A stretch of 64,000 nt of DNA from Oxynema aestuarii AP17 (GCF_012295525.1 NZ_CP051167.1:5877299-5941298), one strand, 5' to 3'. Shown: positions 42,192 through 53,833, numbered from the stretch's first letter. The notes: generated by a model not told the origin, from the sequence alone. Numbers and translations: made by a program.

Positions 42192-44912
42192 TCAATGCCA
42201 GTCTCCCGCGAGAATAAATGCCGCCCAATAGTAAGGTAAATGATAGTTTTGGTCGCGATATTGGGGATCGTGTAAAAACGTTAGTTGAGTCTGACGCAAC
42301 GCCTCCGCTTTCGTGAGGTTTGACTGGCGCCAATGGCGGTAAAACTCGCGCATGAATAACGCCGTCGAACCGTCGGCGACCTTCCACAAACTGGCTAAGG
42401 TACTGCGCGCCCCGGCTTGAACCGCGACCCCGGCTAGACCCAAACCGCCGCGACGGTCAGATTTCGCCGTTTCACAGGCACTCAAGACCAGTAAATCGAT
42501 CGGAAAAAGACTACTTTCGATCCGGCGTCGGACGAAGCGATCGAATTGACGGACGTTAATCGGGTCGTCGAAGGCGAGAATAAAGGTCTTTTGAGGATCC
42601 GAACTGAATTCACCGTGAGTGGCAATGTGAACGATCGAAAAATCGGCGTGATTGATTTGTTTTTCAAAAGCATCGCGGGTAAAGTCTTCGTCCAAAAGAA
42701 TCTTGCTGTCGCCGATTTCTGCTTGTACTTCCTGTAATTCTCTCTTTACCGCCGGGAGTTCGTCGAAGTTCGTTCCAAAACTCGGACCGTTTCTAACTCC
42801 TGCCAATAAACCCCGGGGTTCGGACGAAGTTGGGGGCGGATTCGAGTCGAGCTGCGATCGCAAACTAAACGCCAAGCTATATTTTTCAATTAAATATTGG
42901 CCTTGTTCGTCTTGCAACATGGCCATCGGAATAGTTTGTAGCAAACTGTCAGTAACAAACACTAAAGTTCCCGAATCGGGCAAGAGATCGCGAGTGGGTT
43001 GAATTAAAAGTTGGTAGAGTTCGCGAGCGGCTTTAGCGATTTGTTCTTGGTTAATACGAGGATTCAGTGAATACTCTTCTATAAAAAAATTTAAAGATTT
43101 AATTTGTCGTTTGACCGCCTGCCATGGGACTGAGTAATAGTAAAATTGCCGTTCGGAAGCATCGGGAACCTTGACTACGATCGCGATCGAATTGTACTTT
43201 TCTAAGACGATCGCGTACAGAATGGCTGCAGGGTTGTCTTGGAGGTCGGAGTCGGGCTGACTTTCGATCGATAAATCACAACCGAGAAAATTTTCTAATT
43301 CGGCCAACCCGAAGCGATCGATGAGTTGAGCCACGGTTGCGAGTCGATCTTCAAAGGGTTCCCATTTCAAAAGGACAAAAATATAGTCTTCATAAATATC
43401 TCGGACGGTTTCTTGAAAAGAAAACTGTACTTCTCTTTCTAGGGAAAGTAAATCTTGGCGAACTTGCTCTACTTGTTCGACTGCCATTTCGTAAGCGGCG
43501 ATCGCCATGGGAATTTCTCCGAGACTGTAGGCGATATTTCCTAACTGTTGTTGCCAGCGATAGCTCAGTTCTGGAGCGGCGATCGCTTCCGACAGTACCA
43601 CCGCTCGTTCGGTCCATTCTCGGGCGAGATTCAAGTTACTGTGTTTCTGGTAGAACATCCCCATCAGACCGGAGGCATAAATCTCGGTCTGAGTATGGTT
43701 CAATTGGCGAGATGCGCCCAGAGCTAACTCGATTTGGGCGATCGCCTCGCGACTGTATTGGCGATCGCCCCATTGCATTAAAGTATGGGCAAAATTGAGC
43801 CGCGCGTAGATTTCCTCAATCGCCGATAAGCCGGAAAATAATAACGGATCGGCGACTAACTGCTCCACGGTCGGTTCGATTTGAGCGTCGAGCTGGCGCC
43901 ACTCCTGAGTCAGGATCGCATTGTCATCCTGTCCGGCACCTTCCTCCTTCAACCACTCGGCGATCTCGACGAGCAAACTCAAGGCATTGAACAGCGCTTG
44001 AGAGCGGGTGCCGTTGGCACTTTCCCACTCATTCTCCCTTCGTCCTATACGGCGATAACGCTCCAGGGTTCCCTTACCCAATTCGATCGCTTTGATGCGA
44101 TCGCTGGATTGTTCGGTACGGTCGTAAAAACTGCGCTGGCGATTGTATCGCGCTCGTTGGGTGTTCGCCAAGCTCAGTTCGATAATAGCGATCTCCCGAC
44201 CCGAGCTCCACGATCTCGCCAGTTTCAGGGCTTGTTGCAACACCGTTTCCGATGCTTTCAATTTGCCGATCTCGCGCAAGATTTCCCCCAAATTCTGTAA
44301 GGCGAGCTTCTCGATTGCCGTGGAAAGACCGCAGTGCGACTCCGTACAAGCCAACTCGAACCCATCCTCTGTTTGGGCTTCACACAAAAGATCGCCCCCC
44401 TCAATCGGGAGAATCCCAACTAATACTTTACAAGCACGACGATATTGACCTTGGGTTTGGAAAACTACACTTTGGTTGATCTGGCTTCCTACGATCCCGT
44501 CACGATCGCCCAACTGGCGATACAGTCGTTCCGCTTCTTGCCACAACTCTAAGGCTTTTTGGTAGTTGCCCCGGGCAAAGTATTGGTGTCCCTCCCGGGT
44601 TAACAGGCGAGCTTGACGCCGCCATTGGGAGGACGGCGCGATCGTTTGCACCCGAAGCAGTTCCGAAGTGAGCGGGTTCGGGACGAACGGCAATGCGATC
44701 GCGCGTTGAGTCATTCCTTCGCCAAAAATTGTCCAGAGGAACAGGGCGGTTCCTCCCGCGATCGAAATAGAACGTATCCTAGCGCACCCCCGACGCTCCA
44801 GCCAAGGTTCTAGCATCTGAAATTTATAACAACCCCTGAATTGTCTAGAATCAGTCAACAGCGCACTTCTGACCCCTACTTGGCGCGATCGCCTCAGAAG
44901 TGACCGAACCAC
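42192..44912 (-). CDS. TPR-repeat plus CHAT-domain (caspase-like protease) protein
   Basis: 906 aa; TPR units in the N-terminal two thirds; C-terminal CHAT with HIATHGEF (His) and LLVLSACETA (Cys) catalytic dyad motifs. Confidence 0.8.
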   Translation of the reverse strand: MVRSLLRRSRQVGVRSALLTDSRQFRGCYKFQMLEPWLERRGCARIRSISIAGGTALFLWTIFGEGMTQRAIALPFVPNPLTSELLRVQTIAPSSQWRRQARLLTREGHQYFARGNYQKALELWQEAERLYRQLGDRDGIVGSQINQSVVFQTQGQYRRACKVLVGILPIEGGDLLCEAQTEDGFELACTESHCGLSTAIEKLALQNLGEILREIGKLKASETVLQQALKLARSWSSGREIAIIELSLANTQRARYNRQRSFYDRTEQSSDRIKAIELGKGTLERYRRIGRRENEWESANGTRSQALFNALSLLVEIAEWLKEEGAGQDDNAILTQEWRQLDAQIEPTVEQLVADPLLFSGLSAIEEIYARLNFAHTLMQWGDRQYSREAIAQIELALGASRQLNHTQTEIYASGLMGMFYQKHSNLNLAREWTERAVVLSEAIAAPELSYRWQQQLGNIAYSLGEIPMAIAAYEMAVEQVEQVRQDLLSLEREVQFSFQETVRDIYEDYIFVLLKWEPFEDRLATVAQLIDRFGLAELENFLGCDLSIESQPDSDLQDNPAAILYAIVLEKYNSIAIVVKVPDASERQFYYYSVPWQAVKRQIKSLNFFIEEYSLNPRINQEQIAKAARELYQLLIQPTRDLLPDSGTLVFVTDSLLQTIPMAMLQDEQGQYLIEKYSLAFSLRSQLDSNPPPTSSEPRGLLAGVRNGPSFGTNFDELPAVKRELQEVQAEIGDSKILLDEDFTRDAFEKQINHADFSIVHIATHGEFSSDPQKTFILAFDDPINVRQFDRFVRRRIESSLFPIDLLVLSACETAKSDRRGGLGLAGVAVQAGARSTLASLWKVADGSTALFMREFYRHWRQSNLTKAEALRQTQLTFLHDPQYRDQNYHLPYYWAAFILAGDWH

Positions 44913-45051: not shown

Positions 45052-45255
45052 TCAACCATCGGGAAACTGCCAGCAGCACAAATGCTCGACATCCGAACTG
45101 CCACACTCCGGACAATCCGCCTCTTCTGAAGAATCCACCCATTCGGCATCGCAACGGCGACAGTGGCAGAAAATGTTATTGCGATTGGCCTGTTCGATCC
45201 CCTGTTGCCATTCTTTGAGACCTTCGGAGTCGAACATTTTGGGAATTTCAGACAT
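45052..45255 (-). CDS. Small zinc-ribbon protein (CxCxxC … CPEC), 67 aa
   Basis: MSEIPKMFDSEGLKEWQQGIEQANRNNIFCHCRRCDAEWVDSSEEADCPECGSSDVEHLCCW. The 4-Cys arrangement suggests zinc binding. Lies directly upstream of and co-oriented with the CHAT gene. Confidence 0.4.
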   Translation of the reverse strand: MSEIPKMFDSEGLKEWQQGIEQANRNNIFCHCRRCDAEWVDSSEEADCPECGSSDVEHLCCWQFPDG

Positions 45256-45396: not shown

Positions 45397-47043
45397 CTAT
45401 ACCGTCAATTCCAAACAAGCGGCCAAATCTTCATCCGGCGTCGAAATTGCTTTGAGGCCATATTTTTTCGATAACAACCCAAACACATTCGGCGAAATAA
45501 ATGCGGGCAACGTCGGACCCAAGCGGATATTTTCGATGCCGAGATATAACAAGGTCAGCAAAATCGCCACCGCTTTTTGTTCGTACCACGAGAGAATCAT
45601 CGACAACGGCAACTGATTGACCTCGACCCCGAAGGCATTCGCCAATCCCAAGGCAATCTGCAGGGCCGAATAGGCATCGTTACACTGTCCCACGTCCATC
45701 AGTCGCGGAATGCCGCCGATCTCGCCGAGGTCTTTGTCGAAAAAGCGGAATTTTCCGCAAGCTAAGGTCAAAACTACGCAATCGGACGGCACTTTTTCGA
45801 CTAATTCCGTGTAGTAATTGCGGGTCGGTTTGGCCCCGTCGCAACCGCCGACGAGGAAGAAATGACGGATTTTACCTTGTTTGACTGCTTCGACGACTTC
45901 TCCCGCCACGCTTAAGACTGCATTGCGCGCAAATCCAGTCATCACTTGACGGGAATCGCCCGTTTCGGTAAAGCCGGGTAAATTTTGGGCGATCGCAATT
46001 AACGCCGCGAAATCGTCATTTTTGATATGAGGCAAGTCGGGCCACCCCACCGGACCGAGAGTATAGACTCGATTTTTATAACTCTCGTGAGGGGGCATCA
46101 AACAGTTGGTGGTCATCAGAATCGGACCGGGAAAGGCGGCGAATTCTTTGGTTTGATTCTGCCACGCCGTCCCGTAGTGACCGTACAGGTGCGGGTATTT
46201 TTGTTTCAAACCGGGATAACCGTGGGCGGGCAGCATTTCGCCGTGGGTGTAGATCGAGATGCCCGTTGCTTCGGTTTGTTGTAACAAGTGTTCCAGGGCT
46301 TTGAGGTCGTGACCGGAGACTAAAATCGCTTTACCGACGCGCGGACCGAGGGGAACGGCGGTGGGGACGGGATGACCGTAGGTTCCGGTATTGCCCGCGT
46401 CGAGGAGTTCCATGGTCCGCAGGTTAATTTCGCCGAGTTTGAGGGCGAGATCGACCCAATCGTCCAAGGTTAGATCGTTGCGGTCGAGGGCGGCTAAGGC
46501 TTCGTGACAGAAGGCGTAAACGCGATCGTCTTCTTGGGATAATTCTCGGGCGTGGTAGGCGTAGGCGGCGATCCCTTTGAGTCCGTAGAGGACGGTTAAT
46601 TTTAAGGAGAAGATATCGACGTCGATCGCCGCTTTGGAGATAAATTCGTATTCGAGGTCTCGTCCTTGTTGGATTAACTCGTCGAGTCCGGTGGCGGGTT
46701 GGAAAGTGGCGGCGCCTTCGGGAATCGTCGCTTGGGGGGCGATCGCCTGTAACTGCTGTTTTAAGCCGTCTCTCAAGGCGATCGCGCGATCGATATAATT
46801 GACGAAGCTTTGCGGGTCGAAATTGACGTTCGTTAAGGTGGCGAATAGGGTTTCGCAACTGAAGCGGTCGGCGTCGCGATCGATGATACCGTAGTCGCGG
46901 GCGGCGATCGCCACCTGTCCCAATCCGCGTAAACTATGAATTAATAAGTCTTGTAAGGCGTCGAGTTCGGGGCTTTTCCCACAGGCGCCCCACTGATAAC
47001 ATCCTTCGCCTCGGCTGGTTTGTTCGCATTGGGTACAATACAT
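45397..47043 (-). CDS. hcp: Hydroxylamine reductase / hybrid-cluster protein
   Basis: N-terminal MYCTQCEQTSRGEGCYQWGACGK cysteine cluster; 548 aa; Hcp/CODH-fold motifs. Confidence 0.9.
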   Translation of the reverse strand: MYCTQCEQTSRGEGCYQWGACGKSPELDALQDLLIHSLRGLGQVAIAARDYGIIDRDADRFSCETLFATLTNVNFDPQSFVNYIDRAIALRDGLKQQLQAIAPQATIPEGAATFQPATGLDELIQQGRDLEYEFISKAAIDVDIFSLKLTVLYGLKGIAAYAYHARELSQEDDRVYAFCHEALAALDRNDLTLDDWVDLALKLGEINLRTMELLDAGNTGTYGHPVPTAVPLGPRVGKAILVSGHDLKALEHLLQQTEATGISIYTHGEMLPAHGYPGLKQKYPHLYGHYGTAWQNQTKEFAAFPGPILMTTNCLMPPHESYKNRVYTLGPVGWPDLPHIKNDDFAALIAIAQNLPGFTETGDSRQVMTGFARNAVLSVAGEVVEAVKQGKIRHFFLVGGCDGAKPTRNYYTELVEKVPSDCVVLTLACGKFRFFDKDLGEIGGIPRLMDVGQCNDAYSALQIALGLANAFGVEVNQLPLSMILSWYEQKAVAILLTLLYLGIENIRLGPTLPAFISPNVFGLLSKKYGLKAISTPDEDLAACLELTV

Positions 47044-47109
47044 GACGCTTGTCTCCTGATTCGCTTTCCTCTGCTTATCCCCACTCTAGAATCGCGATCG
47101 CGGCGTGAC

Positions 47110-47125
47110 CTTGACTTAAGTCAAG
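47110..47125. promoter_or_regulatory. Perfect 16-bp palindrome CTTGACTTAAGTCAAG (TTGAC-N4-GTCAA, Crp/Fnr-type box) in the hcp / regulator divergent intergenic region
   Basis: Read directly; lies between hcp (-) and the Crp/Fnr gene (+). Confidence 0.55.
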
Positions 47126-47162
47126 AACTGATTTTTTCCAGGTTGTTTTCTCTCAATTTCCG

Positions 47163-47876
47163 ATGAAACCCGCCGAATCTTCTCTTGCCGAACTCGTCCA
47201 ATTTTTGGCGACCACCCAACTTTTTGAGGGTCTTCCTCTCGAAGACATCGAAGCGTTAGCGGCGATCGCGGTTCAAAAAATGTATCGCAAAGGTGAGATT
47301 TTATTTTGGGAAGGCGATCGTGGGATTGGCTTTTTTGTTTTAATTCGAGGTCGGGTTAAGGTTTTTAAACAATCGGCGGAAGGCAAAGAACAAATTTTAG
47401 GCATTTTTGCGACCGGGGAGCATTTCGCCGAAGTTCCCGCCTTTGACGGCCAAGCTTTTCCGGCTTCGTCGGCGACGTTGGAGCAAACTCACGTTTTATT
47501 TTTTCCGAGGGTTGCGTTTTTTCAGTTAATGCAAGATCGACCGACGTTAGCGATGAATTTGTTATCGGTTTTTGCTCGAAAGCTGCGCCGTTTTAGCCGC
47601 GCGATCGAGAGTTTATCGTTAAAAGAAGTTCCGCAACGGTTGGCGGCGTATTTACTTTATTTAAATGAGTCGTCGGGCGATCGCGCTACGATGGAGTTGG
47701 ATATTACCAAAGGACAATTAGCCGCTTTTTTAGGCACGATTCCGGAAACGCTTTCCCGGGTTTTCGCCCGTTTGGTCGCCGAAGGGGCGATCGCGATCGA
47801 CGGTTCGACGATTACCTTGTTAAATCGAGATAGGTTAATCGCTCTGGCTGAGGGTCGGGTTAAACTTAAAAGTTAA
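47163..47876 (+). CDS. Crp/Fnr-family transcriptional regulator (HcpR-like by context)
   Basis: cNMP-binding-like fold (…GEILFWEGDRGIGFFVLIRGRVKVF…) plus C-terminal HTH (ITKGQLAAFLGTIPETLSRVFARL). Confidence 0.75.
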   Translation: MKPAESSLAELVQFLATTQLFEGLPLEDIEALAAIAVQKMYRKGEILFWEGDRGIGFFVLIRGRVKVFKQSAEGKEQILGIFATGEHFAEVPAFDGQAFPASSATLEQTHVLFFPRVAFFQLMQDRPTLAMNLLSVFARKLRRFSRAIESLSLKEVPQRLAAYLLYLNESSGDRATMELDITKGQLAAFLGTIPETLSRVFARLVAEGAIAIDGSTITLLNRDRLIALAEGRVKLKS

Positions 47877-48308
47877 TGATTCTTCGATCTTTTTAAGTCA
47901 TAAGCTGCTTCTCTTTTAAAATGCACAGGTGTAAGGAAGCGATCGTGTTTCCTGCAACATCGGAACAACTATAGCAATCCTAAATGATTTGTAACCTATG
48001 TAGGGAGCAAGATGCTCCCACTCCCAGGGGTTTCAGGTGGATCGCCCTGACTCGACTGATTTAGGAATGCTATAGATGATAGTTTTAGGAACATTATTGA
48101 CTTAAATCATGTACAGTGATTCTCGCAAAGATGCGATAATTTGAGGGGAGGGAAGCTCGCACTCCTAGATCCATGGCGATCTATCTACCTCATACATCCG
48201 AGAAACACTATATTTTAAATGTTTAATAGCTTAAAAACCTCGGCAGGAGTTTATCGAGTTTGCTCCTGCCTACATCTGTTTTATCGATCGCCCTAACTTC
48301 TAAATCCT

Positions 48309-48575
48309 TCAAACTTCCGGACGAGAAGCGGCGAGTTCGGCTTTGGCTTCGGAAACCAGTTCTTTACTGCCTTCATAAGCGACAATACCGCCTTTAACTG
48401 CCGTTTTGGCGATCGCCTTACCTGCTTTTTTGACGGCGGGAATGGCGATCGGAGCGACGACGAGGGCGCCGAGTGTTCCTAATAAAATCCATCCCATCCC
48501 CGGCACCGGACAGCGAAGCCCAAACGGACAAGTTCTCGCTAATTCTTCGCCGAATTCATATTCCCATTTCATCAT
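48309..48575 (-). CDS. Small membrane protein, 88 aa, immediately upstream of and co-oriented with the P-type ATPase
   Basis: ORF with a TM segment WILLGTLGALVVAPIAIPAV and a CPFGLRCPVPGMGW motif; a terminator-like hairpin plus T-run lies downstream on the minus strand (~48240-48275). Confidence 0.4.
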   Translation of the reverse strand: MMKWEYEFGEELARTCPFGLRCPVPGMGWILLGTLGALVVAPIAIPAVKKAGKAIAKTAVKGGIVAYEGSKELVSEAKAELAASRPEV

Positions 48576-48609
48576 GTCTTTATCCTCAAATTAGTCCTCT
48601 TTTTACGGC

Positions 48610-50886
48610 TTAATTATCCCTACCTTTAAGTAAGGGGCGCAGTCCGTTGACCCCAGCCGCGATCGCCGATCCGTTATGGACCACCGCCGCCGCTAACGGA
48701 TGAAGTCCTACGGTCGTTGCTAACAATAAAGCCGCCACATTTGGAATCACCGAAAGTCGGGTATTTTCACCGATCAATTGCTGGGTTTGTTGGGCTAGGG
48801 CGATCGCCTTGACCAGACTCTCTAAATTGTTTTCCATCAACACCACGTCCGCCGTTTCCCGGGCCACTTCGGATCCTTCGCCAAAGGACACGGAAACATC
48901 CGCATAAGCCAACGCTGCCGAGTCATTAATCCCGTCGCCGACAAACGCCACCGTTTTTCCCGATTCGTGCAGTTCGCGAACCACCGCAGCTTTTTGTTCC
49001 GGGAAGGCGTCGGCGTGAATGTTCTCCGTGGCGATCCCCAATTGTGAGGCAACGGTAACGGCCCGTTGGCGGCAATCTCCGGTGAGAATGTGAATGTCGA
49101 TCCCTTGCGCCTGCAAGGCTTGAATCGTCCCTTTCGTTTCGGGACGTAAGGGGTCGGTATATTCGATCGCCCCGAGTAATTCACCATTGCTGGCGACGTA
49201 AATCGCCGCCGATCCGCGCAAGTCGGGATACACTTCATAGATCCGTTCTAGGTCGATCTGTTCCTTCGCCATGAAGCGATCGCAGCCGACGCGAACCTCT
49301 TCTCCCTCAATTATAGCCCGCACGCCGAGACCGACTTGATAATCCCAGCCATCGCGCTCTAACGCCTCTACCCCGCATTCTTGGGCGTAATTGAGCAGTG
49401 CACAGGCGATCGGATGCGTGAGGCGTCGTTCCGCAGTGGCGGCGAAAGCTAACAACCGTCGTGGGTCGGCACCGTGGATCGTTCTCACTCCAGTGACGAC
49501 GACATCTCCCTGAGTGAGCGTCCCGGTCTTGTCAAACACCACGGCATCTACGTGAGCCAGTTGTTCCAAACTGCGCCCGCTTCGGATGAGGATGCCGCGC
49601 CGTGCTGCCGCACTCATCGACGCCAGTACCGTAGTCGGCACGGAAACGCGAATCCCGGTCATAAAATCGAGGGTCAGAATTGCTGCGGCTCTCGCCATGC
49701 TTCCCGTCACGACTAAGACCCCGGTCGAGAACGCGAAGGCGGGCAAAATCGCTTTGTCGGCCAGTTGGGCCGCGTAGTTTTCCATGCGCGTATCGCCGAC
49801 GGGAGCCTCTCGGACGAGGGTGATACTTTGTCCGGCGCGAGTATCCAGACCGGTTTTCTCGGTCAGGATATACAAATGACCTTCGCGTACCAACGTAGAG
49901 GCATAGACCGGATCGCCGACCGATCGCCGCACGGGAACCGACTCGCCTGTGAGTTTTTGCTGGTCGATCGTGGCTTGACCCCGGAGGATCGATCCGTCGA
50001 TCGGGATTTGTTCGCCGGGATAGACGATGACTGTATCCCCGGGACGGACGCGATCGAGGGCGATTTGCACTTTCATCCCGTCCCGTTCTACCCAGACGAC
50101 GCGATCGAGGGAATCGATCAATTCCGAGGCGTGGCGGGTCGTACTGCGGGCGGTGCGATCGCGGATCAGGTCCCCGAGTTTGTGCAGTAACAAGATCGTC
50201 GAAGGGGTGAGCGGATTGCCCTGTAACGTCGTCAGGGTCAGGGCCATCAAGTCGAGACAGTCGATGTTAATCCGCTTATCTTGCCACAAACTTTCGAGGG
50301 CTTTTTGCGCTACGGGCAGACTTCCGACGGCGATCGTCCCGACCACGGCTAGGGTCGGAATCGGCAACCCCATCGGTCCGGCGAGCAAGGCGAGGAGGCT
50401 GGCGACCAGGGGCAATTTCAGTTCGGACCAGGCGCTTTCCGCCTCCCCGTCGCCGTCAGCTCCCGGCGCCGGGACGATCGCCGTCGCCGCCAAGTCGATC
50501 AAGTTGCCCAAATGCTGCTGCATCTCCTCTACGGAAACGCGATCGCCGTGATAGTGGAGGGCGACGGACATCGCCTGGGGTTTCATGCGGACCTCGGTGA
50601 TGTACTCGTCAGCTTCGAGCAACATTTGCAATCGGTAGACGTAATGAGCGTCGCAACCGAGGCGAGGTAACCGCAACCGCAACCGCCCGGGAATACTGTG
50701 AATCACTTGATGGGGAATCCCCGGGCGCGCAGTCCGTGTTGACGGAGTTTGAACGGGGGAAATCGGTGAGTGCAGCGCTTCGCTATTGTCAAGGGCTTGG
50801 TCGATGGATTTGACCAGTGCGAGTGACCCTTTTTGCCTTGCGACTTTTTGTTGAGACTTGAAATGGACTGCGAGGGCTGCTGCCAT
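48610..50886 (-). CDS. P-type ATPase, P1B-like (heavy-metal-type) architecture but without a canonical CPx motif or CxxC metal-binding domain
   Basis: TGES (KLTGESVPV), DKTGTLT, GDGINDSAAL, TGD motifs. TM segments flank the ATP-binding domain. The position aligned to CPC reads SVPTT. The N-terminus has an HMA-like region without Cys pairs (IHSIPGRLRLRLP). Confidence 0.7.
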   Translation of the reverse strand: MAAALAVHFKSQQKVARQKGSLALVKSIDQALDNSEALHSPISPVQTPSTRTARPGIPHQVIHSIPGRLRLRLPRLGCDAHYVYRLQMLLEADEYITEVRMKPQAMSVALHYHGDRVSVEEMQQHLGNLIDLAATAIVPAPGADGDGEAESAWSELKLPLVASLLALLAGPMGLPIPTLAVVGTIAVGSLPVAQKALESLWQDKRINIDCLDLMALTLTTLQGNPLTPSTILLLHKLGDLIRDRTARSTTRHASELIDSLDRVVWVERDGMKVQIALDRVRPGDTVIVYPGEQIPIDGSILRGQATIDQQKLTGESVPVRRSVGDPVYASTLVREGHLYILTEKTGLDTRAGQSITLVREAPVGDTRMENYAAQLADKAILPAFAFSTGVLVVTGSMARAAAILTLDFMTGIRVSVPTTVLASMSAAARRGILIRSGRSLEQLAHVDAVVFDKTGTLTQGDVVVTGVRTIHGADPRRLLAFAATAERRLTHPIACALLNYAQECGVEALERDGWDYQVGLGVRAIIEGEEVRVGCDRFMAKEQIDLERIYEVYPDLRGSAAIYVASNGELLGAIEYTDPLRPETKGTIQALQAQGIDIHILTGDCRQRAVTVASQLGIATENIHADAFPEQKAAVVRELHESGKTVAFVGDGINDSAALAYADVSVSFGEGSEVARETADVVLMENNLESLVKAIALAQQTQQLIGENTRLSVIPNVAALLLATTVGLHPLAAAVVHNGSAIAAGVNGLRPLLKGRDN

Positions 50887-51379
50887 GATTTCCCCCTAAG
50901 ATTTGTCAATTGAACTTAGGTTAACTGAAGGTTAATTTCTTCTGAATTCAGTTTAATTCTCTGGGCCATAGAAAAGCAATTTTGTAATAGTTTGTAAGCT
51001 TTGATTTTTATTAAAAATCATTTTCGTTAACGGGCGATCGTTCTCGTTTGCCTCCCCTTGAAATTTGGGGTCGCGACGGGGGACTTGACGGCACAAAGCT
51101 AGATTTATCGAGGGTTTTCAGCCAAGCTACCCCTAAATTTCAACCCCGGCAAAGGGCGATCGCCTCTGCGGAAAAATTGCCTCGATACAGGGCTGTGATT
51201 TACTTTTTTGCCAAAAAATAGAGAAGGATTGCAAGTAGAAAACTTTGTCAATAACGCCAAGATTACAGAGATTTTCTTAAAAATTCTATAAGTTTGGGGT
51301 TAGGTTCCAGGGATTTTAACCGAAGCGACTACGATTTACTCGACCCCCCAAACCTTGCCAGTTATCCCCAGTTTTCGGC

Positions 51380-52966
51380 TTAGTGTAATTTGGCGATCGC
51401 CGAGCGCTCTACCAGTAATTCCCCGGTTAAAATATCGCGAACTGTCACTAACAACACCCGCATTTCGTCAATTTCAAATTGAACGGCGATGCGATCGAAA
51501 CCAACTTGTCCGGGGGGGTCGAGATGGGCGATACACACATCGGGATCCCGTCCTTGTAGGGAGCGAAATTGAGTCTGTTTTTGCAGCGCCGTGCTGCTCA
51601 TTTGACCTTCGGGGTCGAAAATCACCTCGGCTGCGGTAATTTCGGCGACTTCGCCAATATCCAGGCGAATTTCCCGTTGTCCTTCCACGGCGACTTGCAA
51701 AACCAACGGGCGATCGCCTGCGGTGGGATAGGAGGTTCCTTGTTCAAAAATCGGCCAATAAGAATAACTTTTACTATACGGTTCCCACAGTCGGATCGCG
51801 TAACTGTGGCGCAAATAGTCTTCAATTTTAACGTGGCGTTCGAGGGCTAAAGCACCATGGGCGACCGCTTCAAACGGCTTGTCTATTTTGACTTTCTGCC
51901 GTCCGAAATAAGAAATTATCAACTGAGCGATCGCGGGAATCAAACAACTGCCGCCGACTAATAAAACCCGTTCGATCTCCCGTTTGCTAATCCCTTTACT
52001 CGTGGCGATCGCTAGCACTTCGTCGATCGCCTCGCGCAAGCGATCGAGTAAACCTTTGCGTTCTAAAAGCTCTTCTAACTGCTGGCGGCTCAATTCAATT
52101 TTATAGGCTTGAAAGGTTTCCTCGTCAAACCAACTTTCTCGAACCATTTCTGTTTGAGAAAGCCGAATTTTCAAACGTTCGGCAATTTCGAGTAACTGCA
52201 ACCACCCCATTTCGCCGACTTGCGATCGATTCGATCCGATCTGACGCAAATAATCTTCCACGATCCAGCGATCGATATCTTCTCCGCCGAGATAGGCGTC
52301 GAACTTGGCGATCGCTTGCGCCCGAACCGTGGACGGGTCGCGATCTCGGGCGCCCCATTCCACGGTGCGAACTAAGCTCAAATCCAGAGTTCCGCCGCCG
52401 AAATCGACGACCAGGACGACGGCGCCGGGTGTTTGCAGGGCATATCCCAACGCCGCCGCCGTAGACTCGTCTACCACTTGCACCGATCCGACGCCGAGAA
52501 CTTCCCCCATCCCTCGTATCCATTCTAAATAGCGGTCGAAGGCGCCGACGGGAACGGTAAAAATGGCGCGGGTCGGGTCGATTCCCAGGCGGTGCAGTTC
52601 TTCCCAGATGGCCAGAAAAAACCGTTGGGCGATCGCCTGCGGGGTGTAGGCGATGCCGTCGATTTGGCGCGGCGGCGGCTGGAAGTCGGCCACCAGAGCG
52701 CGTTTGAAGCTACGAAACAGGCGATCGGGGTCGGCGGCGTCCAAGCGGCGCGATCGCACCGCTTGACCGAAGGTGAGTTGTTGGTTCTCGCCGCAAAAAA
52801 CCAGGGAGGGAATCACGGGAATTTCGTGGCGATCGCCGGAGCCGCGATGGAGGACGAAGCTGCGCGAAAGTCCTTCAAATTTAAGGGTTTCTGGGGTTTT
52901 GCGGTCGGGGCTGAGAATGCTGACGACGGTGTTGCTCGTGCCGAAGTCGATCGCGACTGCTGTCAT
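51380..52966 (-). CDS. Noncanonical short Hsp70-family protein (DnaK-like ATPase, about 528 aa)
   Basis: N-terminal AIDFGTSNT (phosphate-1); LVVDFGGGTLD (phosphate-2); ERLK; LVGGSCLIPAI (adenosine motif). The substrate-binding domain is shorter than in DnaK. Confidence 0.8.
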   Translation of the reverse strand: MTAVAIDFGTSNTVVSILSPDRKTPETLKFEGLSRSFVLHRGSGDRHEIPVIPSLVFCGENQQLTFGQAVRSRRLDAADPDRLFRSFKRALVADFQPPPRQIDGIAYTPQAIAQRFFLAIWEELHRLGIDPTRAIFTVPVGAFDRYLEWIRGMGEVLGVGSVQVVDESTAAALGYALQTPGAVVLVVDFGGGTLDLSLVRTVEWGARDRDPSTVRAQAIAKFDAYLGGEDIDRWIVEDYLRQIGSNRSQVGEMGWLQLLEIAERLKIRLSQTEMVRESWFDEETFQAYKIELSRQQLEELLERKGLLDRLREAIDEVLAIATSKGISKREIERVLLVGGSCLIPAIAQLIISYFGRQKVKIDKPFEAVAHGALALERHVKIEDYLRHSYAIRLWEPYSKSYSYWPIFEQGTSYPTAGDRPLVLQVAVEGQREIRLDIGEVAEITAAEVIFDPEGQMSSTALQKQTQFRSLQGRDPDVCIAHLDPPGQVGFDRIAVQFEIDEMRVLLVTVRDILTGELLVERSAIAKLH

Positions 52967-52984
52967 GACAAATGTCTGGATGGT

Positions 52985-53509
52985 TTAGTCGATCCCTGGC
53001 GGTAAGGTCCGGCTGACTTTCGCCGGACACAAGATGCGATCGCCCTGACGGTACCCGATAAAGCGAATGTAAACCAGTTCCCCCGGTTGGATGCTGTCGG
53101 TATCGGCTTGATGCCATTGAGGATTGTAACCGACTCGTTCCCACGGCGTCCCGATCGCCTCGTATCCCCAGTTTTCTAAAACCGTTGCTAGGGGAGTAAA
53201 TAAAGCGATTAAATTTCGCGCCGGAAGGTCGGGTTTTTCCCGGGCGAATTGACACGCACTCGGGTATTGAGTCAGCAAACTTTGCAATTGCTCGAAGGTG
53301 TCTCGATGCACTTGTGCGGTAATCTGCTGTTGCTGGTCGGACAATTGGGCGCGCAAGCGATCGCATTGTCGTCGCAACTGCTCTACTTCGTCGGAGATCG
53401 CCGTTGGGTCGGGGGCGGCTTCGCTTTCTTTTTTTAACGTAGAAATTAGCGCCAAACTGATAACAAACAGAACCCCACCGAAGGCGAACAAATTCGGATC
53501 TTCAACCAC
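52985..53509 (-). CDS. GrpE-like nucleotide-exchange-factor protein
   Basis: Coiled-coil QLRRQCDRLRAQLSDQQQQ; C-terminal LENWGYEAIGTPWERVGYNPQWHQAD…PGELVYIRFIGYRQGDRILCPAKV resembles the GrpE beta-domain. Confidence 0.6.
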   Translation of the reverse strand: MVEDPNLFAFGGVLFVISLALISTLKKESEAAPDPTAISDEVEQLRRQCDRLRAQLSDQQQQITAQVHRDTFEQLQSLLTQYPSACQFAREKPDLPARNLIALFTPLATVLENWGYEAIGTPWERVGYNPQWHQADTDSIQPGELVYIRFIGYRQGDRILCPAKVSRTLPPGID

Positions 53510-53518
53510 GGAAATCCC

Positions 53519-53746
53519 TTATTCCTCCTGTCGGATCGAGGCGGTGCGATCGCCCGTCAAGTTTTCATACCCCTCTTGGCGATCGTGGTAGTATTCTGGC
53601 AATAACTCCCGCGATTTCACCTGACCGAGTGCCGCTTCTAATCCGGCGGTGATTTCCGTACAACGCGTCCCGGACCCCTCGATCGCGGTTTCGATCGTGT
53701 TGCCGTCTTTCCCAATCCGATATTCAATTTTTTGATATTCTGCCAT
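53519..53746 (-). CDS. DUF2997-like small protein
   Basis: MAEYQKIEYRIGKDGNTIETAIEGSGTRCTEITAGLEAALGQV…PEYY matches my recollection of the DUF2997 pattern (EI.FRIGKDG…G..G..C…LE.ALG). The track ORF starts at 53788. Confidence 0.45.
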   Translation of the reverse strand: MAEYQKIEYRIGKDGNTIETAIEGSGTRCTEITAGLEAALGQVKSRELLPEYYHDRQEGYENLTGDRTASIRQEE

Positions 53747-53833
53747 AGAGAGAACTCCAAAACTTTCTGTCCCCTTCGCCCTCGCCAACGAGGGTAGAGG
53801 CTGTCTCTAGTTTACGGAAGTTCTCAGGATTTT

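Follow-up and report, generated by a model that had tools for sequence, protein, structure and literature searches.

A Cysteine-Free P1B-Type ATPase and a Putative DUF5132-Family Partner in an Apparent Two-Gene Operon of Oxynema aestuarii

P1B-type ATPases are sorted, and their metals predicted, by a cysteine-containing tripeptide in the fourth transmembrane (TM) helix, TM4. Here we describe a pump of a class that has no such tripeptide. It is encoded in a 64,000-nt stretch of DNA from Oxynema aestuarii AP17 (GCF_012295525.1 NZ_CP051167.1:5877299-5941298; this whole stretch is called the window, and positions count from its first letter), where a minus-strand ATPase gene and a gene for an 88-amino-acid membrane protein look like a two-gene operon. 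The pump is predicted to carry an N-terminal CoBaHMA domain, and the small protein is treated here as a divergent, shortened member of the DUF5132 family. We think it probable that the two form an "effluxosome-like" pump-plus-scaffold operon for the export of a divalent cation, with Fe2+ or Mn2+ as our guess for the substrate.

The pump gene and its operon

The first gene is predicted to encode a catalytically competent P1B-type ATPase of 758 residues. The protein scores 508.6 bits against the "heavy metal translocating P-type ATPase" model TIGR01525 (cutoff 346) and 242 bits against the P-type superfamily model TIGR01494 (cutoff 62), contains the Pfam domains E1-E2_ATPase and Hydrolase (HAD), and has CopA as the best PDB sequence match of its full length (HMMER, 2e-69). 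The phosphorylation site (DKTGT, residues 452-456), the actuator TGES (313-316), the HP pair of the N domain (491-492), and the hinge motifs TGD (602-604) and GDGINDS (650-656) are present, and all five are invariant in an alignment of 45 family sequences whose members are 53-72% identical. An AlphaFold2 (AF2) model with a mean predicted local distance difference test (pLDDT) score of 76.9 has residues 1-54 disordered, a compact N-terminal domain at residues 60-133, and eight TM helices (152-169, 178-203, 208-221, 226-258, 367-394, 397-405/408-429, 689-725, and 730-748). This is the P1B architecture, with helices MA, MB, and M1-M6, a small N domain containing HP, and no large M7-M10 block. The helix break at L406-D407 coincides with the point at which M4 is unwound beside the ion of P1B pumps, and the top Foldseek matches of the model in the PDB are all P1B pumps (CopA, ATP7B, ZntA, and sCoaT). 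The original prediction, made by a model from the DNA alone, of a P-type ATPase with all catalytic motifs and a P1B-like topology is thus borne out. Public records annotate the gene as "heavy metal/cadmium-translocating" or "Cu2+-exporting."

The open reading frame (ORF) for the 88-residue protein had been placed immediately upstream of the pump gene. It is present, co-oriented, and conserved, but it lies 3' of the ATPase gene, across a 34-nt gap that holds a GAGGA ribosome-binding site. Its product matches a hypothetical protein of Oxynema aestuarii with 100% identity. A terminator stem-loop follows 40 bases beyond its stop codon (stem GGCAGGAG-N13-CTCCTGCC, tail GAGGTTTTTAA / GAGGTTTTT); it went unreported by an automated terminator scan because the loop limit of that scan is 8 nt and the loop at 48231-48270 is 13 nt. 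Given the short gap, the ribosome-binding site, and the terminator, the ATPase gene and the small ORF look like one operon, in which the order would be promoter region, ATPase, 34-nt gap with ribosome-binding site, small ORF, and intrinsic terminator. The features of the coding part of the locus are as follows.

50891-50896, minus strand: GGGGGA ribosome-binding site before the ATG at 50886 (sequence)
48610-50886, minus strand: P1B-type ATPase gene, 758 residues (ORF, TIGR01525, Pfam, AF2, Foldseek)
50488-50709, minus strand: predicted CoBaHMA (Pfam HMA_2) N-terminal domain, residues 60-133 (PF19991, own hidden Markov model, AF2)
49630-49677, minus strand: putative TM4 ion-site segment, residues 404-419, LTLDFMTGIRVSVPTT (HMMER alignments and family alignment)
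49519-49533, minus strand: DKTGT phosphorylation motif with D452 (sequence; invariant in the family)
48664-48744, minus strand: putative TM5-TM6 ion-site segment, residues 715-741, with P715-N716 and H737-N738-G-S740-A741
48583-48587, minus strand: intergenic GAGGA ribosome-binding site (sequence)
48309-48575, minus strand: small single-pass membrane protein gene, 88 residues (87 from the second ATG), with 8 homologues
48231-48270, minus strand: intrinsic terminator, GGCAGGAG, 13-nt loop, CTCCTGCC (read from the sequence)

A membrane ion site without cysteine

SVPTT had been read at the TM4 position where P1B pumps carry their CPx motif. This assignment does not hold. In a HMMER alignment with CopA of A. 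fulgidus, A-C-P-C-A-F-G-L-A-T-P-T-A stands opposite D-F-M-T-G-I-R-V-S-V-P-T-T, and in one with the P1B-4 pump sCoaT, S-P-C stands opposite F408-M409-T410. By these alignments, the true CPx equivalent would be F408-M409-T410 (...LDFMTGIR...), with neither Cys nor Pro, and S415-V-P-T-T419 is the conserved "ATPTA" segment, (A/S)-x-P-T, which follows eight residues past the CPx position. A shifted but canonical CPx motif, for which the original prediction had allowed, was looked for by alignment and is excluded by the CopA and sCoaT comparisons and by the family alignment, which give F-M-T; no C-P or P-C occurs anywhere in TM4 of the pump. None of the Cys-containing tripeptides CPC, CPH, SPC, PCP, SCA, and CSC is found, and a cysteine occupies the position in only 1 of 121 cyanobacterial family members. 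The TM4 consensus of these 121 sequences is S-[V/I]-L-T-L-D-F-[A/M/V]-T-G-I-R-V-S-V-P-T-T, with D407, T410, G411, R413, and P417 invariant.

In TM5, P715-N716 lies opposite Y-N of CopA, and in TM6, H737-N738-G-S740-A741 lies opposite H-E-G-S-T of sCoaT. D407, T410, G411, N716, and N738 are kept among representatives that are ~29-58% identical to the query, and this conservation has the pattern that would be expected of a used binding site. The candidate ligands are D407 and T410, plus M409, in TM4, N716 in TM5, and H737, N738, and S740 in TM6; the ion site would accordingly consist of oxygen and nitrogen ligands plus one Met. R413 is invariant, with Lys in its place in FezB-type sequences of the DYSCA class, and it may act as an intrinsic counter-charge, for which Lys693 of ZntA offers a parallel. 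An Asp/Asn/Met site is also found in the Mn/Fe carrier Nramp.

Two paralogous types of this site occur among the 121 cyanobacterial members, and several genomes contain both. The type with [M/V]409, H737, and A741 accounts for 29 members, including the window pump, and every sequence with M409 also has H737. The type with A409, N737, and [T/S]741 accounts for 92.

Placement among the P1B pumps

Judged by the published TM motifs, the pump fits none of the subclasses P1B-1 to P1B-7. Where P1B-1 (Cu+/Ag+) has CPC, YN, and MxxSS, the pump has FMT, PN, and HNGSA, and its TIGR01511 score of 330 bits is below the cutoff of 397. The P1B-2 pattern (Zn2+/Cd2+/Pb2+; CPC, a TM5 Lys, and DxG) fails for lack of CPC, and the ZntA equivalog models NF033775 and NF008262 give 249 bits (cutoff 1240) and 273 bits (cutoff 1005), respectively. 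TIGR01512 is passed (342 versus a cutoff of 313), in two pieces only. For P1B-4 (Co2+/Zn2+/Fe2+; SPC and HEGxT), the match is partial, with FMT in place of SPC and HNGSA in place of HEGST. The TM4 motifs PCP of P1B-5 and CSC of P1B-7 (PMC13460109) are both absent from TM4 of the pump. The signature of FezB, which defines P1B-6, consists of D[Y/F]SCA in TM4, HNxxT in TM6, and an N-terminal RxRxR, and the R-rich motif is shared by CtpC (bioRxiv 10.1101/2020.01.10.902569), a pump termed "P1B-6-like" that has HN in TM6 and CPC in TM4. In the window pump, D407-F-M-T-G keeps D-F and loses S-C-A, H737-N-G-S-A keeps HN with Ala in place of Thr, RLRLRLP is present, and the spacing from N716 to H737 is 20 residues, compared with the N-X18-HN given for P1B-6. 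The pump would thus be recognizable as a derivative of the P1B-6 signature in which the single Cys is now Thr. Since the motifs of P1B-1 to P1B-7 are not matched, the substrate cannot be read from those subclasses, as had been anticipated.

To place the pump more broadly, 1.84 billion cluster representatives (50% identity) were searched with HMMER, and 120 near-full-length sequences from the best 150 were aligned with the query. The largest motif class, with 71 of the 121 aligned sequences, is cysteine-free and has D-[F/Y/L]-x-[T/S]-G-[I/V]-R together with [N/S/H]-N-G-S. The FezB-type class, DYSCA[L/I]K with HNxxT, contributes 18 sequences, and 6 each belong to a class with D[F/Y]VCG.K and HN[G/A]AT and to the CtpC-type class with xCPCA and HNLST; a further 20 lack the N-terminal domain and have an aberrant TM4. 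H..PGR.R.R is found in nearly all members of the four CoBaHMA-bearing motif classes. In a rough neighbour-joining tree, intended as a sketch, the Cys-containing classes are cohesive clades among cysteine-free sequences, and the cysteine-free class is not a single clade. The metals assigned to the Cys-bearing clades agree with the genes found beside sampled relatives: two sampled DYSCA-class pumps adjoin FeoA/FeoB or FeoA genes, and among the sampled CPC-class pumps, one adjoins ZnuABC and another adjoins a DUF1490 gene. What the original prediction missed is that the pump is no orphan. With its N-terminal CoBaHMA domain and its TM4 and TM6 derived from the P1B-6 signature, it is best placed, from its sequence, in a CoBaHMA-P1B superclade beside FezB and CtpC-like pumps, within the large cysteine-free class. 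A scan of one genome per species for the exact TM4 peptide TGIRVS[AV]PT[TSA], taken from an 11-sequence alignment, gave 308 loci in 308 species genomes; the best 80 of these 308 are almost all from Cyanobacteria, with a few from Thermoleophilia-type Actinomycetota.

Several other pump forms were seen in the same material. About 20 P1B-like representatives (P0210, P0224, P0230, P0236, P0242, and others) have no CoBaHMA domain and an aberrant TM4/TM6 (examples are SNFMDTLR and YGVSL), and they group apart from the others in the rough tree. Long-form paralogues of 1020-1120 residues (P0097, P0083, P0077, P0102, and others; loci L020-L023, L026, L050, L055, L059, and L060) carry a hydrophobic hairpin rich in glycine (...IPLVTGLLVTGALGIQGLMAFPVYMIT...) within an N-terminal insertion, and they have a C-terminal extension that ends in a conserved helix-turn-helix-like block, LAxRLxVSxxTISRRKSKPDFxxW...DPxGIxWxYS; at these loci, the DUF5132 gene is upstream of the pump gene and not downstream. 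At one metagenome locus (L087, 439-1342), a FezB-type pump with DYSCA/HNGTT comes after a MamC-family protein and another two small hydrophobic ORFs; three FeoA-domain genes come next, and the cluster has a typical ferrosome-like look. Two contigs from non-cyanobacterial metagenomes or metagenome-assembled genomes (L089 and L090) combine a cysteine-free pump with an HMA_2 protein and a sodium:dicarboxylate-symporter-family gene. The former also has a DUF5132 gene, PHO4, and HSP20, and an FtsZ/tubulin-like gene is present in the latter. In their layout, these clusters are similar to those that encode an organelle.

The N-terminal CoBaHMA domain

CoBaHMA, which is identical to HMA_2, adds to the HMA fold a strand, beta0, in which a His is conserved; it also has conserved basic residues in beta1/beta2 and no CxxC (PMC8890360; bioRxiv 10.1101/2024.07.07.602159). 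In the pump, His63 lies in beta0 and R68, R70, and R72 lie in beta1 (IHSIPGRLRLRLP), with all three arginines invariant in the 45-sequence alignment. There is no CxxC, and the single Cys78 of the domain is not conserved, so the original prediction that both CPx and CxxC are missing stands. The AF2 fold is beta-beta-alpha-beta-beta-alpha at a pLDDT of ~89, with strands at residues 60-65, 68-72, 96-102, and 107-112 and helices at residues 80-92 and 119-133. Pfam HMA_2 (PF19991) matches residues 60-131 with an E value of 7e-4 and 20 bits, below the gathering score of 30. Many homologues of the pump carry a precomputed PF19991 annotation, neighbours of the pump ortholog in Fischerella PCC 9605 pass the threshold, and our own hidden Markov model (HMM) of the domain scores the window pump at an E value of 2e-33. 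Fold and sequence together point to a CoBaHMA/HMA_2 domain. The "R-rich motif" of the ferrosome literature and the CoBaHMA signature appear, from the two descriptions, to be the same thing. The function of the conserved basic patch of CoBaHMA is currently only guessed at, and the partner protein described below offers a concrete binding candidate for it.

A DUF5132-type partner related to PacL

The 88-residue protein has one TM segment with G33-T-L-G36, followed by a cytosolic helix that is first Lys-rich and then Glu/Ala-rich (...SKELVSEAKAELAA). The TM helix and the segment PAVKKxGKSIAKTTVKGGIxxYEGSKELVSEAKAEL are conserved among its eight homologues. The two cysteines of CPFGLRCP, to which the earlier reading had implicitly given a role, are not conserved among these homologues, and a metal-binding function of this motif is rejected on that ground. 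An HMM built from neighbouring DUF5132 small ORFs scores the window ORF at an E value of 1.9e-16; the neighbouring small ORFs at related loci match Pfam DUF5132 at E values of 1e-14 to 1e-18, and RefSeq uses this name for the small ORFs on a Gloeothece PCC 7822 plasmid. In the Pfam model of DUF5132, a TM helix is followed by GKP.AK..IKGG...YEK...ED.VAEA.AE. The alignment with classical DUF5132 proteins is collinear, except that the window protein lacks 11 residues of the cytosolic helix and has a longer N terminus.

Pairing of the two genes is close to obligatory. Among the loci of the TM4 scan, 63 ATPase genes are flanked on each side by at least 1.3 kb of sequence. For 60 of them, a homologue of the small ORF, a DUF5132 protein, is encoded on the same strand at a distance of up to 1.2 kb; it lies downstream of a short-form pump in 50 cases, upstream of a long-form pump of 1020-1080 residues in 9, and upstream of a short form in 1. 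The suggestion that the small protein is a subunit or chaperone therefore gains strong support from its co-conservation, the check proposed for it, and from the homology of its family to the PacL scaffold described below. Further CoBaHMA ORFs lie within 5 kb at 56 of the 63 loci. Since the window type of small protein accompanies the M409/H737 type of pump, it is suggested that pump and partner co-evolve.

In Mycobacterium tuberculosis, PacL1-3 (DUF1490) are proteins of ~90 residues (PacL1 has 93) with one TM helix and a cytosolic helix of Glu/Ala repeats (PMC9374683, PMC13043812). They are encoded with CtpC, CtpG, and CtpV, are needed for pump stability, and cluster the pumps in membrane foci; the GXXG motif of the TM helix mediates self-association, and the acidic Glu/Ala repeats bind the N-terminal domains of the pumps (PMC9374683, PMC13043812). 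DUF6110 proteins have been described as "PacL-like" partners of P1B-6 pumps. PacL papers searched for DUF5132 and for cyanobacteria (including PMC9374683 and PMC13043812) were found to mention neither. The window protein shares with PacL a GXXG-type TM motif, a cytosolic Glu/Ala helix, and an operon with a P1B pump; it lacks the His-rich tail, which is optional in the PacL family, and ends in AASRPEV, and an occasional relative does end His-rich (for instance, ...HPETHDHHDHG at L047).

A profile of 36 DUF5132-type partners was compared by hhalign with a PacL-like DUF1490 protein (itself a weak Pfam match) that is encoded directly upstream of a CPC/HNLST pump, and it matched at 94.6% with an E value of 6.6e-8 over the region ...KGGI...ED(V/L)VAEA(R/K)xE.... 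In addition, the 79-residue partner of a non-cyanobacterial cysteine-free pump matches both DUF5132 (26 bits) and DUF6110 (E value of 1.3e-3), and Pfam DUF1490 gives no match to the small protein family even at E values of up to 10. On the strength of the hhalign match and the bridging 79-residue sequence, we conclude that DUF1490, DUF6110, and DUF5132 are probably related, with each family paired with a single branch of the CoBaHMA-P1B superclade.

In most cyanobacteria, the pump is also flanked by multi-CoBaHMA proteins of ~190-450 residues, some with two or three HMA_2 repeats and a glycine-zipper-like hairpin (for example, L003 3070-5577 and 8913-9494, with similar ORFs in 65 fetched loci). 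A scan of the window with our own HMM gave no other CoBaHMA ORF, and the multi-CoBaHMA proteins are also missing in the closest relatives. The two-gene version of the window is the simplest form of the system.

Proposed function and alternatives

By analogy with the PacL-Ctp systems, the DUF5132 partner would self-associate through its G33-x-x-G36 TM helix, and its Glu/Ala cytosolic helix would bind the basic face of the CoBaHMA domain of the pump, which would stabilize and cluster the pump. Binding to a pump N-terminal domain and the requirement for stability are known only for PacL1-3 of M. tuberculosis. The pump would then export a divalent cation from the cytoplasm by the ordinary E1/E2 phosphoenzyme cycle, and the cation would cross the plasma membrane or enter a lumen. 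Fe2+ or Mn2+ is our guess on account of the kinship with the FezB clade, the retained HN motif, and an Nramp-like Asp/Asn/Met/His ligand set, and we think Cu+, Zn2+, and Cd2+ less likely.

A number of observations weigh against this reading. No characterized member of the cysteine-free class was found in the literature, and both substrate and direction are guesses. The ligand set of the window pump would also be compatible with Ca2+ or Mg2+. Most cyanobacterial relatives have N737 and A409 rather than H737 and M409, and the argument for Fe or Mn therefore holds at best for the subclade of the window pump; the site of the majority type is even harder and would be compatible with Ca2+ and Mg2+. 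No iron, manganese, or other metal homeostasis genes are conserved beside the cyanobacterial loci, and an HLR1-like element upstream of the pump gene (see below) hints at light or redox rather than metal control. As for the partner, Pfam DUF5132 (PF17195) applied to the 88-residue protein alone gives an E value of 0.51 and 10.9 bits (cutoff 25), 11 residues of the acidic helix are missing, as is a His-rich C-terminal metal-binding motif, and an AF2 model of the small protein from nine sequences has a pLDDT of 56, too poor to use. The homology between DUF5132 and PacL rests on one profile-versus-single-sequence comparison of 50 columns, and hhalign against the small ORF of a FezB-type cluster gave a probability of 2%.

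The two systems closest to the pump-plus-scaffold model share much with the window operon. Like FezB of Desulfovibrio magneticus and Shewanella putrefaciens (bioRxiv 10.1101/2020.01.10.902569), the window pump has an N-terminal His-x2-PGRxRxR domain in place of a CxxC HMA domain, a TM4 motif that opens with D-[F/Y], H-N in TM6, and a basic residue three positions past the Cys or Thr (K in FezB-type pumps, R413 here); both are encoded with small hydrophobic Gly-motif proteins, and most cyanobacterial relatives add R-rich/CoBaHMA membrane proteins. Unlike FezB, it has M-T-G for S-C-A, with one Cys now Thr, and HNGSA for HNxxT (NNGS[T/S] in most relatives), its model has eight TM helices compared with the six predicted for FezB (bioRxiv 10.1101/2020.01.10.902569), and no FeoA/B, ferritin-like, or DUF4405 genes are found near it. 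Its host is an oxygenic phototroph, whereas those of FezB are mostly strict or facultative anaerobes. With CtpC-PacL1 (and CtpG-PacL2 and CtpV-PacL3; PMC9374683, PMC13043812), the window operon shares an R-rich N-terminal domain, HN in TM6, and an operon with a protein of ~90 residues whose single GxxG-bearing TM helix is followed by a cytosolic Glu/Ala-rich helix, the small protein families being detectably homologous. In contrast, CtpC keeps CPC in TM4, pacL1 lies upstream of ctpC whereas the window partner lies downstream of its pump, and this partner is of the DUF5132 and not the DUF1490 type, with no disordered tail, no His-rich motif, and a shortened acidic helix.

It is conceivable, though we consider it doubtful, that the operon is the minimal core of a cyanobacterial ferrosome- or effluxosome-type platform, in which a thiol-free pump of new specificity (Mn2+/Fe2+ or alkaline-earth ions), bound at its CoBaHMA domain by charge complementarity to a PacL-like DUF5132 scaffold, would load a lumen or an intracellular inclusion rather than serve detoxification. 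The larger clusters, with extra CoBaHMA glycine-zipper membrane proteins and, at non-cyanobacterial loci, FtsZ-like, PHO4, and SDF genes, would then be the full organelle toolkit, and DUF1490, DUF6110, and DUF5132 would be one superfamily of P1B-pump organizers, each co-evolving with one pump clade.

CoBaHMA and DUF5132 families are also encoded side by side in the ccyA region of Microcystis (PMC8890360; bioRxiv 10.1101/2024.07.07.602159), where the CoBaHMA proteins likewise have the beta0 His and basic patch and DUF5132 has a TM segment and a long soluble helix. There, the genes occur with those for calcyanin and a Ca2+/H+ exchanger, and P-type pumps of this family are not reported; in the window, the two families are pump domain and operon partner, and there is no calcyanin-like ORF. 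One alternative is a hard-cation pump (Ca2+, possibly Mg2+ or Sr/Ba) in a CoBaHMA/DUF5132 network linked to intracellular amorphous carbonate or other mineral inclusions of cyanobacteria. The most widespread calcyanin type has CoBaHMA as its N-terminal domain (PMC8890360), the DUF5132/CoBaHMA genes that flank ccyA and the exchanger in Microcystis are co-expressed with ccyA (bioRxiv 10.1101/2024.07.07.602159), and Chlorogloeopsis fritschii PCC 6912, for which a ccyA-linked calcium/proton antiporter has been described (PMC8890360), has the pump cluster. The site itself is dominated by O donors (D407, T410, N716, N738, and S740) and is purely O/N in most relatives, and the additional CoBaHMA proteins at 56 of the 63 loci are membrane proteins with glycine-zipper-like hairpins. 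We nevertheless regard this explanation as unlikely. The pump family is present in very many of the scanned cyanobacteria, whereas most of 567 genomes lack ccyA (PMC8890360), the loci have no conserved neighbour related to Ca or carbonate, and the ccyA megaplasmid of Fischerella NIES-4106, which encodes "cation ATPases," is not among the 30 plasmid matches listed in a tblastn search. Moreover, the subclade of the window pump keeps His737 and adds Met409, which are unsuited to Ca2+, and the window has no other CoBaHMA gene.

An ordinary detoxification efflux pump for Zn2+, Cd2+, Co2+, or Cu+ with unusual ligands, and with the small protein as metallochaperone, would agree with the public annotations and with the passing scores for TIGR01525 and TIGR01512. 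The related CtpC exports Zn2+ with the Zn2+-binding PacL1, and the P1B-4 pump sCoaT (7qbz), which transports Zn, Cd, and Co, is the best solved match for a query of TM4 plus TM5-6 (E value of 1e-16), its H-E-G-S-T aligning with H-N-G-S-A in TM6. Compared with the P1B-4 pumps sCoaT, PfeT, and CtpD, the window pump has F-M-T for SPC and Asn for the Glu of HEG, and the solved pump has no CoBaHMA domain. Against this alternative, TM4 contains one or more Cys in every characterized P1B pump for Cu, Zn, Cd, or Co but none here, the scores are far below the ZntA and CopA equivalog cutoffs, the N-terminal domain is without CxxC, the partner is without a motif rich in His or Cys, neither of its two cysteines is conserved, and no metal-sensor regulator (ArsR/SmtB, MerR, or CsoR) lies beside the operon, all of which makes this alternative improbable. 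We know of no partner protein described for P1B-4 pumps.

That the protein is a degenerate or regulatory P-type ATPase without ion transport, or one with a nonmetal substrate, would explain the lost canonical metal ligands, the invariant R413 in TM4, and the neighbouring relatives with a fully aberrant TM4/TM6 and no CoBaHMA domain, but it is very unlikely in light of the catalytic residues and TM4 Pro417 that are invariant across sequences only 53-72% identical and of the polar residues D407, T410, G411, N716, and N738 that are kept at ~29-58% identity.

These observations have two implications. First, the large cysteine-free class keeps every catalytic residue and a polar site that is strictly conserved, so the substrate annotation of an entire branch of "heavy-metal ATPases" is probably wrong. 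Second, the near-obligatory pairing with DUF5132 would extend the PacL "effluxosome" principle to Cyanobacteria and to a third small-protein family. Databases already have names for the components, and parts of the system have been described in the literature; what sets the operon apart is the lack of a thiolate site and the probable link between DUF5132 and PacL.

The upstream region

The following elements lie upstream of the pump gene.

51002-51020: perfect 9-1-9 palindrome TGATTTTTA-A-TAAAAATCA (palindrome search)
50981-50998, minus strand: HLR1-like direct repeat (window-wide motif match and conserved block)
50950-50955, minus strand: putative -10-like hexamer TAAACT, inside the conserved block AGAATTAAACT
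50942-50951: palindrome CTGAATTCAG (sequence)
50921-50935: palindrome TTAAC-N5-GTTAA, TTAACTGAAGGTTAA (sequence)

Both promoter palindromes noted in the original prediction exist, but they carry less weight than had been given to them. Two perfect 10-mer palindromes were observed; shuffled sequences contain 0.55 on average, and at least one appears in 42% of them, which puts the observed number within chance. Of the two, TTAAC-N5-GTTAA alone recurs, as TTAACCTTnAnTTAAC, in the promoters of two other genera (Baaleninema and Xenococcaceae), and CTGAATTCAG does not recur in orthologous promoters. A block near the ribosome-binding site, TAGGGGGAA(A)TC, is also kept in the Baaleninema and Xenococcaceae loci.

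The 18-nt direct repeat cTTACAAA-ct-aTTACAAA begins and ends 95-112 nt before the ATG. No other match occurs in the 64 kb (0.11 expected), and the block that contains it is kept in six related loci, upstream of the closest orthologous pumps. It fits the HLR1 consensus, (G/T)TTACA(T/A)(T/A)-N2-repeat (PMC6525291), except at the first base of each half, and we infer that it is a candidate binding site for RpaB or an OmpR-type regulator. Three genera share an identical block of 11 nt, AGAATTAAACT, that holds TAAACT; if this hexamer is the -10 box, the repeat would be centred near -46, within the range reported for activation by RpaB. A scan for a sigma-70 consensus promoter found none. The AT-rich palindrome at 51002-51020, 3 nt upstream of the repeat and absent from the original prediction, has TGAT...ATCA ends reminiscent of Fur-family boxes and may be an operator; the orthologous loci are not palindromic at this position. 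An Rfam search (E values of up to 1) of the 490-nt upstream region and the operon gave no RNA element and one chance match inside coding sequence.

Neighbouring genes

At the cyanobacterial loci, no functional neighbours other than the CoBaHMA and DUF5132 genes are conserved; the remaining neighbour clusters are antisense artefacts or Nostocales synteny (def, dnaA, and htrA). In the window, a minus-strand hcp gene (hybrid-cluster protein, Prismane family, E value of 8e-162) and a plus-strand gene for a Crp/Fnr-family regulator (cNMP_binding and HTH_Crp_2) occupy 45397-47876. The regulator gene is divergent from hcp and convergent with the pump operon, and the two have the look of an HcpR-hcp-type pair, which seems unrelated to the pump because orthologous pump loci lack it. 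Just downstream of hcp, a 67-residue ORF (45052-45255, minus strand) has two CxxC pairs (CHCRRC...CPEC) and a weak HypA-like zinc-ribbon match (E value of 0.004), and a 906-residue protein with TPR and CHAT domains (CHAT E value of 2e-64) is encoded at 42192-44912 on the minus strand. On the other side, upstream of the pump gene and on its strand, a run of genes at 51380-53788 encodes DUF2997 (53519-53788), a weakly GrpE-like protein of 174 residues (52985-53509), and a 528-residue ATPase with the Hsp70/actin fold (51380-52966), and it may be a noncanonical chaperone module.

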